Source: Bacteroidota bacterium (GTDB taxonomy: Bacteria; Bacteroidota; Rhodothermia; Rhodothermales; Rubricoccaceae). From it: 31,365 bases of DNA. Each line of letters starts with the position of its first letter. The first letter of the stretch is position 1. This document shows, piece after piece, positions 4,783-8,014 of the stretch. The stretch is from positions 1-31,365 of the forward strand of contig JBCCRG010000001.1 in the NCBI GenBank assembly GCA_039208155.1. The letters run 5' to 3'. Under the pieces are notes generated by a model that saw nothing but the letters and a program-made list of their open reading frames with translations, was not told where the DNA came from and did not search any database. The position numbers were made by a program, and so were the translations under genes.

Positions 4783-5006
4783 AGAAGCCCTGATGCCACG
4801 CGCCCTGCGCGCCTGACCAATCCCAACACTCCCGTGCTGTCGTCCAATTTCCATAGCCTCTGCCGACTCGGCTCTGCCACGCCCCAGGCGTGGTTGGAAG
4901 GCAACGCGCCTGTCCTTTTCCAGGGCGGCTCGTTCCCGATGCCGAGTGGGGTTGATGCACGCTACCCCCGAGGTGGGCTGTGTCCGTAGGTACGTTGTGC
5001 CTCCAC

Positions 5007-5044
5007 GCCCACCCGCCTCGGCTCCGCGCTCAGGTGGGTTTTTT
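5007..5044 (+). terminator. Candidate intrinsic terminator/attenuator in the leader
   Basis: CCCACC (5008-5013) pairs with GGTGGG (5033-5038), followed by T6 (5039-5044). The loop is long (about 19 nt). Confidence 0.45.
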
Positions 5045-5331
5045 ATGCGCAACTGCCTCATTTCGAGCGTTTGAATACGTCTTGCCTGCAGCGCGATCCC
5101 TCCCAGCTTCCCATTTGACCGTCCGCCCACCCCACGACCTATGCCCGACGATAGCGCCTGCTAGCTCCGCACACGGTGCTTCCAAGCCGCCGCGTTTATC
5201 CGGAGCAGCCTCACTCGCCTCGCCCTGCCCGGCACCTTCCGTGTCGTGTCCCGATTGCCATCGCGACGATCAGGAGATACTGCGGGTAGCCTGTACCCTC
5301 GCTCGTCTCGAACGGGCGATTTAGGTAAATT

Positions 5332-5349
5332 TGTGCAAATTAATGCACA
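5332..5349. promoter_or_regulatory. Palindromic operator-like site in an AT-rich patch upstream of the array
   Basis: TGTGCA-AATTAA-TGCACA, about 80 nt before the first scaffold RNA. Confidence 0.4.
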
Positions 5350-5431
5350 TATTTGTTCATTGAAAGATTGATCGCTTCGCTGCACGAACGACAGGCGTGC
5401 GCCCCGTAAGGCGCATGTCCGTCCCAACAAC

Positions 5432-5559
5432 GTGCGGCCCCGCGCCCCCATGCTCCGAGCGTACATACTTGGTCATGCCATGCCACAACCGGCGTGGAAG
5501 GGTTCGACTCCCTACGCCTGCCTTGGCAGGCCGCTCGGCGGACTTGCGCGGTGCCGTAC
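5432..5559 (+). ncRNA. Y-RNA-like scaffold element Y1 (T-arm insert)
   Basis: CCGCGC 5440-5445 pairs with GCGCGG 5546-5551. CCGAGCG 5455-5461 pairs with CGCTCGG 5532-5538. TACATAC 5462-5468, GACTT 5541-5545 and a T-arm AGGG-TTCGACT-CCCT at 5499-5513. Confidence 0.6.
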
Positions 5560-5595
5560 CGCTTCTCTGGAGACGCCCGTCTCGCCGGAAGCAAC

Positions 5596-5668
5596 GGTCT
5601 AGTAGCTCAACGGCTAGAGCACCCGGTTGTCTGCCGGACGGTTGCGGGTTCGAATCCCGCCTGGACCG
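5596..5668 (+). tRNA. tRNA-Asp(GTC)
   Basis: Acceptor GGTCTAG/CTGGACC, D-arm GCTC/GAGC, loop TT-GTC-TG, T-loop TTCGAAT, G73. CCA not encoded. Confidence 0.85.
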
Positions 5669-5670
5669 CT

Positions 5671-5792
<122 letters not shown>

Positions 5793-5805
5793 TTCCTTGC
5801 AGCCC

Positions 5806-5970
5806 CAGCGCGCCCCAACGGTTCGAGCGTACATACGTCCTTCCAAAGGGGGATTGCAGGTTCAAGTCCTGCCGGGCCCTCACATGGGCCCGTAGCATAA
5901 TTGGTAATGCACCAAGTGTGTGGCCTCACGGCTCGTCCGTGGAGCCGCCGCTCCAACGACTTGCGCGCTG
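5806..5970 (+). ncRNA. Scaffold element Y3: circularly permuted tRNA-like RNA (YrlA-like)
   Basis: CAGCGCGC/GCGCGCTG terminal stem and TACATAC 5830-5836. Order is anticodon-like hairpin, T-arm GCAGG-TTCAAGT-CCTGC (5856-5872), closed acceptor CGGGCCC-TCACAT-GGGCCCG (5873-5892), TA, D-arm GCAT-AATTGGTA-ATGC. Confidence 0.75.
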
Positions 5971-6026
5971 ATGACTGCTTCGTGCTATAAACTTTGCAAC
6001 TCAGATAACTCTAGAGTGCAAGGTAA

Positions 6027-6098
6027 ATCCCTGAAGGCAAATGGCTAGCTGCCACGCTCACATCGTGGAGATAGTAGGTTCGATTCCTACCGGGGATT
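6027..6098 (+). tRNA. tRNA-Val(CAC), non-canonical (A8, U73)
   Basis: Acceptor ATCCCTG/CGGGGAT, anticodon arm CCACG-CTCACAT-CGTGG, T-arm GTAGG-TTCGATT-CCTAC. Confidence 0.7.
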
Positions 6099-6109
6099 CG
6101 ACACAGAAT

Positions 6110-6181
6110 GTCCCTGTAGGCGAATGGCAAGCCGCCACGCTCTCAACGTGGAGATTGCGAGTTCGAACCTCGCCAGGGATA
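6110..6181 (+). tRNA. tRNA-Glu(CTC)
   Basis: Acceptor GTCCCTG/CAGGGAT, anticodon arm CCACG-CTCTCAA-CGTGG, T-arm GCGAG-TTCGAAC-CTCGC. Confidence 0.88.
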
Positions 6182-6211
6182 CTGCTTTCTTCGGGAAGCT
6201 CTGCGAGCAGC

Positions 6212-6357
6212 ACCGCGCCCACACGCGGACGGCGTACACACTCTCACCAGCGGGCTTGCCCGCACCAACGAAGGGAGCGCTCCCGAGTAGAGCGCTGCAA
6301 GTCGGGCCCCTCAATAGCCGACACGCCGCAAGGCACCGCCGTATGGACTTGCGCGGT
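6212..6357 (+). ncRNA. Scaffold element Y4 (non-tRNA multi-hairpin insert)
   Basis: ACCGCGC 6212-6218 pairs with GCGCGGT 6351-6357, and ACGGCG 6229-6234 with CGCCGT 6337-6342. TACACAC 6235-6241 and GACTT 6346-6350. Internal hairpins include GCGGG-CTTG-CCCGC and AGCGCTC/GAGCGCT. Confidence 0.6.
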
Positions 6358-6393
6358 TCACGCTCGCACTCGGCACCTCGTGCGTGCCACCCT

Positions 6394-6470
6394 GCACCGG
6401 TAGCCCAACTGGAAGAGGCCCGTGGCTCAGAACCACGTCAGTGGGGGTTCGACTCCCTCCCGGTGTACCA
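6394..6470 (+). tRNA. tRNA-Leu(CAG) with a short variable region
   Basis: Acceptor GCACCGG/CCGGTGT, A73, encoded CCA. Anticodon arm CGTGG-CTCAGAA-CCACG; variable region only TCAGT. Confidence 0.88.
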
Positions 6471-6493
6471 CGTCAGCTCCGTGCTGACGCCCT

Positions 6494-6570
6494 CTGGAGC
6501 TAGCTCAAGTGGATAGAGCACCGGCTTTGGGAGCCGGGGGTTGCAGGTTCAAGTCCTGCGCTTCAGACCA
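6494..6570 (+). tRNA. tRNA-Pro(TGG)
   Basis: C1-G72, A73, encoded CCA; CCGGC-TTTGGGA-GCCGG; T-loop TTCAAGT. Confidence 0.93.
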
Positions 6571-6710
6571 CGATGCCGACCTGCGAAGGTCGCCGTCAGC
6601 GCGCCGTGCCATGGGGGACACGGCGCACGCGCCCGGCCACCAGCGGCGGGTGGGGAGGTCTCCCCGCCGTGGCCGGGCGCCTGGTCAGCGGTGCCCACCG
6701 GCACCCACTC

Positions 6711-6781
6711 CGGACCGTAGCTCACCGGTAGAGCGGCTGGCTGAAGCCCAGCGCGAGGTGGTTCGATTCCACCCGGTCCGG
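6711..6781 (+). tRNA. tRNA-Phe(GAA), atypical G73
   Basis: CGGACCG/CGGTCCG; GCTGG-CTGAAGC-CCAGC; GGTGG-TTCGATT-CCACC. Confidence 0.82.
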
Positions 6782-6816
6782 CATAAGCCAACCCATGTGT
6801 AGCGAAGCGAGCTCCA

Positions 6817-6889
6817 CGGGTCGAAGCTCAAGTGGAGGAGCACCTGGCTACGAACCAGGAGGCTGCGAGTTCGAGTCTCGCCGACCCGT
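6817..6889 (+). tRNA. tRNA-Arg(ACG), atypical A8 and U73
   Basis: CGGGTCG/CGACCCG; CCTGG-CTACGAA-CCAGG; GCGAG-TTCGAGT-CTCGC. Confidence 0.85.
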
Positions 6890-6910
6890 CTGAGCCGTCG
6901 AGGCTCACCA

Positions 6911-6981
6911 GACGATGTGGTGCAATGGCAGCATGCCTGGCTTCCAACCAGGGGATGCGGGTTCGAGTCCCGCCGTCGTCT
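6911..6981 (+). tRNA. tRNA-Gly(TCC)
   Basis: GACGATG/CGTCGTC, U73; CCTGG-CTTCCAA-CCAGG; GCGGG-TTCGAGT-CCCGC. Confidence 0.9.
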
Positions 6982-6983
6982 CT

Positions 6984-7054
6984 GTGACCGTGTTGTAACG
7001 GTAGCATGATAGGCTGTGTCCCTGTCGGTGTGGGTTCGAGTCCCATCGGTCACC
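6984..7054 (+). tRNA. tRNA-His(GTG), G-1 not encoded
   Basis: GTGACCG/CGGTCAC, C73; ATAGG-CTGTGTC-CCTGT; GTGGG-TTCGAGT-CCCAT. The preceding base (6983) is T. Confidence 0.85.
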
Positions 7055-7138
7055 AAAGGCTGAGCGTCCTTACTGAGGCAAGTGCACCGAAAAGAGCTGT
7101 TTCACTGTCGGGCTTCGACCATTTACCTCAGCAAAAGA

Positions 7139-7211
7139 ACGCTTGCGATGCGGGGCATCCTGCTGGTCTCCAAAACCGGCAGCGCGGGTTCAACTCCTGC
7201 CAGGCGTGCCA
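7139..7211 (+). tRNA. tRNA-Trp(CCA) with a truncated D-loop
   Basis: A1-U72 acceptor ACGCTTG/CAGGCGT, G73, encoded CCA. GCTGGT-CTCCAAA-ACCGGC; D-arm only ATGC-GGG-GCAT. Confidence 0.75.
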
Positions 7212-7216
7212 GGCGC

Positions 7217-7309
7217 TGGCCCGTAGTTCAATCGGCAGCAACGTCGGACTTTGACTCCGGAGATACAGGTTCGCCCTCACACAAATAGACAGGGCTGTCG
7301 GGCCATCCA
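7217..7309 (+). tRNA. tRNA-Gln(TTG) with about 17 extra nt in the T-loop
   Basis: U1-A72 acceptor TGGCCCG/CGGGCCA, encoded CCA, TCGGA-CTTTGAC-TCCGG. T region is ACAGG-TTCG-CCCTCACACAAATAGACAGGG-CTGT (34 nt versus the normal 17). Confidence 0.7.
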
Positions 7310-7324
7310 ACAACTTCAGTCCCT

Positions 7325-7400
7325 TGATCCATAGCTCAATTGGTAGAGCAGCGGTCTCTTAAACCGCGGGGTGCAGGTTCAAGTCCTGCTGGGTCAACCA
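7325..7400 (+). tRNA. tRNA-Lys(CTT)
   Basis: TGATCCA/TGGGTCA, A73, encoded CCA; GCGGT-CTCTTAA-ACCGC; T-loop TTCAAGT. Confidence 0.93.
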
Positions 7401-7406
7401 ACCCGA

Positions 7407-7501
7407 TGGTCCATAGCTGAATGGTAGAGCGGCGGCCTGTTAAGTCGCAGGGTGCAGGTTTACTGCGTGAACCTGCGGTTTGAATCCTGCTGGGCCAGCC
7501 A
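7407..7501 (+). tRNA. tRNA-Asn(GTT) with a 20-nt T-loop insertion
   Basis: TGGTCCA/TGGGCCA, G73, encoded CCA; GCGGC-CTGTTAA-GTCGC. T-stem GCAGG/CCTGC encloses 27 nt (7459-7485). Confidence 0.75.
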
Positions 7502-7511
7502 TCAGCACTAT

Positions 7512-7582
7512 TGCGGCTTCGTCTAGCAGCAGGACGCCCGCCTCATCAGCGGGAGGCCCCGGTGCGATTCCGGGAGCCGCGA
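7512..7582 (+). tRNA. tRNA with CAT anticodon (Met, fMet or Ile2 not resolved)
   Basis: TGCGGCT/AGCCGCG, A73; CCCGC-CTCATCA-GCGGG; atypical T-loop TGCGATT. Confidence 0.75.
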
Positions 7583-7592
7583 CTAGAAAAGT

Positions 7593-7672
7593 AATGCCGT
7601 GACGCTGTGAAGCCGTGTGGCCGTTGGGTTTCGTGCACAAGACGGCAACACAGCCACACGGCAACACCGCAG
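7593..7672. repeat. Imperfect hairpin built from short repeats (copy E1)
   Basis: GCCGTG-rich left arm, central TTGGGTTTC (7624-7632), CGGCAAC/CACACGG-rich right arm. Confidence 0.5.
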
Positions 7673-7684
7673 CACTCACCAGCA

Positions 7685-7769
7685 GGAGCGTCAATCCGAT
7701 GGGCGACGGAGGTGGTCTCGAAAACCGCTGAGCCGCAAGGCCTTGGGGGTTCGACTCCCTCACGCTCCG
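7685..7769 (+). tRNA. tRNA-Ser(CGA)
   Basis: GGAGCGT/ACGCTCC, G73; GTGGT-CTCGAAA-ACCGC; long variable arm; T-loop TTCGACT. Confidence 0.9.
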
Positions 7770-7793
7770 CCGACAACGACAACACCCAAAACT

Positions 7794-7877
7794 GGACAGC
7801 TAGACCGGTAATGGTATCCGGACCTGTCTGTAAAACAGGTGCCTTGTGCCTTCGAGGTTCGACTCCTCGGCTGTCCA
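7794..7877 (+). tRNA. tRNA-Tyr(GTA)
   Basis: GGACAGC/GCTGTCC, A73; CCTGT-CTGTAAA-ACAGG; long variable arm; CGAGG-TTCGACT-CCTCG. Confidence 0.9.
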
Positions 7878-7925
7878 CACCACCCACTGAGATACTGCCA
7901 CACCGAACCACTGAAGCACCGATAA

Positions 7926-8014
7926 GGAGGGGAGCCGGATGACGGTTCGCCGGAGCGGTCTGCTACACCGTCTGCCGCCAGGCAGCGTGGGTTCGACTCC
8001 CACTCCCTCCGCCA
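7926..8014 (+). tRNA. tRNA-Ser(GCT)
   Basis: GGAGGGG/TCCCTCC, G73, encoded CCA; GCGGT-CTGCTAC-ACCGT; variable arm CTGCC-GCCA-GGCAG; A8. Confidence 0.88.

Follow-up and report, generated by a model that had tools for sequence, protein, structure and literature searches.

The window, by which is meant the whole 31,365-nt stretch of DNA analysed here, is contig 1 of a 3.5-Mb metagenome-assembled genome (MAG; G000) that is 64.6% complete, consists of 489 contigs, and is rich in repeats. Its plus strand carries an array of 16 tRNA genes (5596-8014; ARAGORN), which is kept in five other genomes of the genus and is followed on its 3' side by the genes of a vWA-domain protein, RtcB, a DUF6847 protein, and a methyltransferase-Tpt1 fusion. 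The sequencing runs that contain this tRNA stretch are marine metagenomes, and the records that share the element described below name Rhodothermales. The array tRNAs of G000 and of its closest relative, G002, differ mainly by compensated stem changes (e.g., in the tRNAs for Asp, Gly, His, and Phe), indicating that the array tRNAs as a class are under structural constraint. A comparison of the array with a phage collection yielded only short, generic tRNA matches and no sign that the array is phage-borne. A normal, 75-nt housekeeping tRNA-Asn(GTT) is encoded at G000:C55:6045-6119, and a normal tRNA-Gln and a long-arm tRNA-Leu(CAG) are also present elsewhere in the genome. The features that matter for the following are listed in window coordinates:

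7407..7501, plus strand: array gene for tRNA-Asn(GTT), 95 nt including the insert (ARAGORN), with the encoded CCA at 7499-7501
7419, plus strand: G at tRNA position 13, which makes the D-stem pair 13-22 a G.G pair (flagged as non-canonical in the Rfam alignment)
7454..7476, plus strand: predicted 10-bp hairpin of the 5' T-stem strand plus TTTAC (7454-7463) with GTGAACCTGC (7467-7476), closed by a TGC triloop (RNA folding)
7459..7481, plus strand: 23-nt cassette TTT-ACTGCGTGAACCTGCGG-TTT, a member of a dispersed repeat family (alignment to G002; exact copies of the 23-mer elsewhere in G000 and its relatives)
7481, plus strand: T at tRNA position 56, which is C in G002, in 69 of the 72 array tRNAs of the genus, and in insert-free contigs
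10931..12409, plus strand: gene of the RtcB ligase, given for context only (Pfam PF01139, E = 2e-84)

The array tRNAs are structurally atypical. The array tRNA-Leu(CAG) (window 6394-6470) has 77 nt and a short variable arm of class I shape; the housekeeping tRNA-Leu(CAG) on G000:C55 has 88 nt. The tRNA-Met(CAT) (window 7512-7583) has the T-loop TGCGATT, with G at position 55 in G000, G002, and G004, a conserved departure from the universal T54-T55-C56. A tRNA-Gln(TTG) gene missed by ARAGORN (window 7217-7309) has a T-loop lesion of a different kind, in which an insert at 7274-7294 (21 nt, CCCTC...CAGGG) stands in place of the loop bases AATC of the G001 and G004 orthologs. G002 has this lesion as well, and 17 nt are missing at this place from a minor strain that co-occurs in the source sample; the insert occurs only once in the genome, and its interpretation as another copy of the repeat was rejected. 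At 5616-5940 and 5701-5763, Rfam gave weak YrlA (Y RNA-like) matches of 36.2 and 27.1 bits, neither of which reaches the gathering score, together with a tRNA match without acceptor ends (model positions 6-65, 54 bits); these matches are situated inside the array, upstream of the vWA, RtcB, and Tpt1 genes.

The T-loop of the array tRNA-Asn(GTT) contains 20 nucleotides more than that of its 75-nt orthologs. The Rfam tRNA model RF00005 matches positions 7407-7498 with 50.3 bits, above the gathering cut-off of 29 bits, and places 24 nt at the four central positions of the T-loop. Alignment with the ortholog in G002, which has 75 nt, opens a single 20-nt gap inside the T-loop; the only other differences are T instead of C at position 56 and G instead of C at position 13. 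The cassette occupies the place of the ortholog's TTC (tRNA positions 54-56), a net gain of 20 nt, and its junctions are ambiguous inside the TTT runs. These results bear out an earlier note on this DNA, whose letters for 7454-7490 agree with the sequence and which had proposed a 20-nt insertion in the T-loop: ARAGORN, Rfam, and the G002 alignment all support it, position 56 is indeed T, no damage is seen in the acceptor stem, the anticodon arm, G73, or CCA, and once the 20 nt are taken out, the T stem again has 5 bp and its loop 7 nt.

The insert is specific to one lineage. The tRNA-Asn ortholog of G004 also has 75 nt. Two other samples of the same study contain related populations whose contigs are shorter by exactly 20 nt at 7457. 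These insert-free contigs both have C at 7419, and the one in run X2 has C at 7481 as well. The G at tRNA position 13 is likewise private to the G000 lineage, with C in G002, G004, the housekeeping tRNA-Asn, and the insert-free contigs. Among the Logan contigs of the source sample, the filled form alone was seen. Independent Logan contigs of run X1, the probable source sample, cover 7385-7553 without a single difference at a depth of ~22; since they span the insert unchanged, the insert is real DNA and not an artefact of the MAG assembly.

The insert belongs to a family of dispersed repeats of ~20 nt and is not a local duplication. The repeat unit of 20 nt reads TTTACTnCGTGAAsCTnCGs and is followed by TTT. 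A search with the pattern TTTACTnCGTGAACCTnCGGTTT (at most 2 mismatches) recovered 3, 3, 11, 4, 13, and 12 copies in the six genomes of the genus and one weak match in the family's remaining 44 genomes; the reversed pattern, used as a control, had no match in these 50 genomes. When s was allowed at two positions (at most 1 mismatch), matches were found in 18 of the 285 Rhodothermales genomes, representing 12 of 105 genera and 10 of 27 families, with 1-13 copies each; again, the reversed pattern had no match in the 285 genomes. The eleven other Rhodothermales genera contain 1-3 copies per genome. Exact copies of the repeat are also present in a closed Rhodothermales chromosome, a Salinibacteraceae MAG, and eight metagenome contigs. 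Most copies are located outside of tRNAs, nested in intergenic repeats. In other Rhodothermales MAGs, ARAGORN called no tRNA in the neighbourhood of the copies, a T-loop-specific pattern had no match across the metagenome contigs, and none of the copies in the eight contigs recovered with the general pattern is in a tRNA.

The unit consists of two 10-nt half-units, each of which contains CTnCG, and could form two overlapping 5-bp mini-hairpins with TnC triloops (TTTAC-TnC-GTGAA and GAAsC-TnC-Gs'TTT). Among 43 distinct copies, the s-s' pair is C-G in 34, G-C in 6, and T-A in 2, and is unpaired in 1. The occurrence of three Watson-Crick types at this pair points to a pairing constraint in single-stranded DNA or RNA. 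Tandem units are present at equivalent GTCAT...CCGCGAAGGCGG sites in metagenome contigs (JAAUYD01...), with three units in L073 (100-230), two in L078, and one in L079, and the units inside one array do not all have the same s-s' pair (T-A, C-G). As to a dependence on context, the bases at the two n positions both fit the T stem in the two tRNAs that carry the element but are free to vary over the 43 copies. The ACTGC/GCGGT hairpin that the earlier note had drawn within the insert is absent from the second of these tRNAs and from the GAAGC...GCTTT variant of the element.

The copies nested in other repeats reveal the target site. At least four other repeat families include members that the element interrupts, and where it is missing, the corresponding position reads TTCGA, TTC, or TC:

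unfilled ...GATCC-TTC-GACTCGCT..., filled ...GATCC-TTT-core-TTT-GACTCGCT...
unfilled ...GGGGGACAG-TTC-GAGG..., filled with the same change (TTT-core-TTT)
unfilled GTCATCCCGGACTTGA-TC-CGGGATC, filled with the same change
unfilled ...GGA-TTC-CCGC..., filled with the same change

Filled and empty states were also found at corresponding sites in different genomes:

tRNA-Asn: filled in G000, empty in G002 and G004
tRNA-Leu: filled in G004, empty in the five orthologous genes
G002:C7 filled, G000:C37 empty: a TTT site with a clean gain of 20 nt
G004:C47 filled, G001:C242 empty: TTC changed to TTT...TTT

A common rule emerges from these alignments: TTY gives way to a 23-nt cassette (TTT, a 17-nt core, and TTT), with a net gain of 20 nt and a change of C to T. 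At TTC sites, the C is retained on neither side of the cassette. A target duplication arising from a staggered cut would not yield such a loss on both sides, which favours replacement, or copying from a filled donor, over a simple insertion. If the change of C to T had always come first, at least six independent prior mutations would have been needed at exactly those sites that were later filled.

The second filled tRNA is an array tRNA-Leu(CAG) of G004 (L004:1213-1309, minus strand; 97 nt), which carries TTTACTTCGTGAACCTTCGGTTT at the same position of the T-loop. The two inserts are identical at 18 of 20 bases, and the five orthologous tRNA-Leu genes do not contain the element. T56 was found in three of the 72 array tRNAs of the six genomes, namely in the two filled genes and in the tRNA-Asn of G004. 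The latter (L021:1832-1906, minus strand; 75 nt) has the T-loop TTTGAGT and thus T56 without an insert, which is possibly an excision scar, a pre-insertion state, or a coincidence; the change of C to T might thus sometimes precede the insertion. In both filled tRNAs, the 5' strand of the T stem pairs with CCTnC of the element at five of five positions (GCAGG/CCTGC in tRNA-Asn; GGGGG/CCTTC, with two G.U pairs, in tRNA-Leu), the variable n fitting each stem. Such pairing of CCTnC with the 5' flank does not hold in contexts outside tRNAs. The pairing at all five positions in both tRNAs might mean that a hairpin is under selection or directs the targeting, and that the hit is not a neutral one.

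The insert is predicted to disrupt the fold of the tRNA. At the RNA level, GCAGGUUUAC would pair with GUGAACCUGC around a UGC triloop, and the resulting hairpin (7454..7476) leaves the true 3' strand of the T stem (7486-7490) unpaired. In the minimum-free-energy fold, the 95-nt RNA loses the cloverleaf, whereas the 75-nt ortholog keeps it; the 37-nt segment of the T arm has a folding energy of -15.1 kcal/mol (z = -3.4). An equivalent hairpin with two G.U pairs is predicted for the copy in tRNA-Leu. The Rfam scores of the empty and filled genes reflect the same difference:

tRNA-Asn: empty (G002) 72.2 bits, filled 50.3 bits
tRNA-Leu: empty 49.3 bits, filled 32.3 bits

C56 and the elbow of the T-loop are a near-universal need for the folding, processing, and function of tRNAs. 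The filled tRNA-Asn gene is most likely an inactivated or decaying copy. Its decay is supported by the presence, besides T56, of one private stem-breaking substitution in each filled gene (G13 in tRNA-Asn, and a change of G to T in the 3' strand of the acceptor stem in tRNA-Leu), although the total number of substitutions in tRNA-Asn (2) is not unusual for the array. Redundancy with the normal tRNA-Asn(GTT) elsewhere in G000 would explain why the loss is tolerated.

The observations are probably best explained if a very small mobile repeat was inserted at the DNA level; it would sequester the 5' strand of the T stem and inactivate a redundant array tRNA. The 23-nt cassette would have replaced T54-T55-C56 of the array tRNA-Asn after the split from the nearest sequenced relative, adding a net 20 nt and turning C56 into T. 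In the universal T-loop motif GGTTCGA, the element would have found the TTY site (often TTCGA) that it uses elsewhere, which would also explain the presence of a nearly identical element at the same position of tRNA-Leu(CAG). In the transcript, GTGAACCTGC of the element would pair over 10 bp with the 5' strand of the T stem and TTTAC, so that neither the T arm nor the elbow could form. Misfolding, T56, and the G13.G22 mismatch together would most likely render the gene copy non-functional or leave it to decay, and the normal tRNA-Asn(GTT) elsewhere would let the cell tolerate the loss. Both the loss of function and the mobility of the element itself are what we infer from this pattern.

It is unlikely, if conceivable, that the insertion is tolerated in the sense that the 95-nt RNA is made and used, be it in translation, as a tRNA with an enlarged T-loop, or outside translation, where it would serve the neighbouring Ro / Y-RNA / RtcB repair system as a decoy or substrate. 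Such a role would be in line with the intact acceptor stem, anticodon arm, G73, and CCA, with an Rfam score that still exceeds the gathering cut-off, and with the atypical nature of the array tRNAs in general (short-arm tRNA-Leu(CAG), weak YrlA-like matches), but the predicted fold destroys the T arm, the near-universal requirement for C56 and the elbow is violated, the insert is private to one lineage, and the D stem has an additional mismatch.

There is even less room for a protein-spliced mini-intron, which the earlier note had put forward and in which an unspecified endonuclease would excise the 20 nt and RtcB, encoded 3.4 kb downstream, would join the halves to a 75-nt tRNA-Asn. Bacterial tRNA introns known so far are self-splicing group I introns of more than ~200 nt in the anticodon loop, and archaeal protein-spliced introns need a bulge-helix-bulge (BHB) motif, i.e., a 4-bp helix and two 3-nt bulges, that is recognised by EndA (PMC4090602). 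A scan of every 20-nt excision register in the 95-nt tRNA-Asn and the 97-nt tRNA-Leu detected no 4-bp central helix with flanking helices and hence neither a BHB nor a relaxed BHB motif, in agreement with the earlier note, which had seen no clear one; the sole central helix with four of four pairs (GGTT/GGTT) consists entirely of G.U wobbles and has no outer and no inner pairs, and the minimum-free-energy fold is a continuous 10-bp hairpin without bulges. EndA (PF01974) was found in none of five genomes of the genus (completeness 65, 93, 88, 97, and 97%), whereas the four archaeal control genomes were positive, and an Rfam scan of 5000-9000 yielded no match to a group I intron, the insert being only 20 nt long and located in the T-loop. 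The intron would need a ligase of the RtcB type, which is present (PF01139) but unspecific. RtcB is widespread in bacteria as a general repair ligase, and no link between the gene at 10931..12409 and the insert was found.

The vicinity of RtcB and a Tpt1-family gene to the array, the restoration of a regular T stem and loop after removal of the 20 nt, and the occurrence of the same element in a second tRNA, again at this position and reminiscent of the 'intron transposition' that takes place at the DNA level in Thermoproteales (PMC4090602), would all suit an intron. However, the insert is missing from the orthologs in G002 and G004 and from the related populations, a strain-specific distribution that the earlier note itself had counted against splicing; a spliced product would still contain U56 and the G13.G22 mismatch; most copies of the element lie outside tRNAs; and the tRNA-Asn gene is redundant. 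An RtcB-spliced mini-intron is thus not supported, in view of the lineage specificity of the insert, the lack of a BHB motif, and the lack of an EndA-family gene in the five genomes. A variant of this scenario, in which the 20-nt unit is a mobile mini-intron that a structure-specific nuclease cuts out of any transcript at the conserved TnC mini-hairpins before RtcB reseals the ends, is slightly more improbable still; if true, it would mean that bacteria have a protein-spliced, transposable tRNA intron that is independent of BHB and EndA.

A local slippage duplication of T-arm sequence is hardly credible. It could draw on GGTTT at both flanks and on the occurrence of CCTGC both in the insert and as the 3' strand of the T stem, but the 23-mer is present at dozens of unrelated loci and in a tRNA with a different T stem (GGGGG/CCCTC), and the tRNA contains nothing from which the core ACTGCGTGAA could derive. 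The dispersed copies and the copy in tRNA-Leu already refute it. What the earlier note had taken for a short duplication at the ends of the insert is the 3' end of the element itself, CnCGGTTT, which is part of the consensus at every locus; of its proposal of a tolerated or inactivating duplication, the inactivating effect probably stands, whereas the local duplication gives way to a copy of a dispersed repeat. An assembly artefact, for which the incompleteness (64.6%), fragmentation (489 contigs), and repeat content of the MAG might speak, is practically negligible given the Logan contig that covers 7385-7553 without differences at a depth of ~22 and the presence of the same kind of insert in a MAG of another project.

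Judged by behaviour, the closest known system is that of the 21-27-nt small dispersed repeats (SDRs) of Nostocaceae cyanobacteria; the likeness is one of behaviour. Elhai and colleagues reportedly described SDR4-6 of this family as 'very small mobile repeated elements'. The Nostocaceae SDRs (Elhai et al. 2008, Genome Res 18:1484) are cited in passages of PMC3116915, PMC2884548, and PMC5861425; the passage in PMC5861425 names HIP1 as the insertion site of SDR5 and states that HIP1-rich cyanobacteria of other families showed no SDR-like repeat. Like these SDRs, the element of Rhodothermales is tiny (~20-27 nt) and non-coding, has dispersed, near-identical copies that are present or absent at orthologous sites, is nested in other repeats and sometimes in tandem, and has a short, specific site and no known enzyme. 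The evidence for SDR-like behaviour comprises the many near-identical dispersed copies, four pairs of filled and empty sites, nesting, and tandem variation. In contrast to the SDRs, the element occurs in another phylum (Rhodothermales, Bacteroidota/Rhodothermota), has a different sequence, overwrites its TTY target (C to T), has a low copy number (1-13 per genome), and hits the T-loops of tRNAs.

REP elements have ~20-40 nt, and REP/REPIN sequences are mobilised by RAYT (Y1) transposases (PMC3116915). The element resembles them in being short, hairpin-forming, and mostly intergenic, and G000 is also full of GTCAT-headed REP-like palindromes, but the element does not have a GTAG-type head, its stems have only 5 bp, its copy number does not track Y1 genes, and it inserts inside REP-like repeats instead of being one. 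The palindromes that crowd G000 include GTCATCCCGGACTTGATCCGGGATC, GTCATGCTGAACTTGATTCAGCATC, CTGTCCCCCTC-n6-GAGGGGGACAG, and GACTCGCTnCGCTCGCTCAGGATGAC, and a Y1-transposase (RAYT-like) gene at C201:6144-6503 adjoins a REP-like palindrome (region C201:5926-6503). The Y1/RAYT family (PF01797) is present in G000 and G001 and weakly in G002, but neither G004 nor G005, the genomes richest in copies, encodes it, and a RAYT/Y1 transposase as the mobilising enzyme was rejected on these phyletic grounds.

Two other systems share individual traits with the element. Non-canonical BHB introns in the tRNAs of Thermoproteales are said to 'transpose' (Fujishima et al. 2010, as summarised in a passage of PMC4090602). 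They are comparable in that a similar short sequence (the archaeal median is 12-25 nt) occurs at non-anticodon positions of different tRNAs and is gained at the DNA level, but they carry a BHB motif, depend on EndA, and sit in functional, often single-copy tRNA genes. Integrases use attB sites in the T-loops of tRNAs, e.g., that of mycobacteriophage Ms6 (PMC1762012), which likewise makes the T-loop a conserved landing place for mobile DNA. However, such integrating elements are kilobases long and rebuild the 3' end of the tRNA, whereas here only 20 nt are gained and the tRNA remains unrepaired.

For the tRNA, the insertion would most likely be an ordinary pseudogenising event with an unusual agent, and not a bacterial T-loop intron. 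The agent is a 20-nt unit that seems to be spreading both inside Rhodothermales genomes and from one to another; as a very small mobile repeat, it appears to be undescribed for the phylum. To our knowledge, mobile DNA this small has been described only in Nostocaceae cyanobacteria. The two hits in tRNAs with clean empty orthologs provide exact junctions before and after the event, which would constrain any mechanism that may be proposed. The universal T-loop motif GGTTCGA would present an exposed target to such an element, and only redundant copies of a tRNA could afford the loss.
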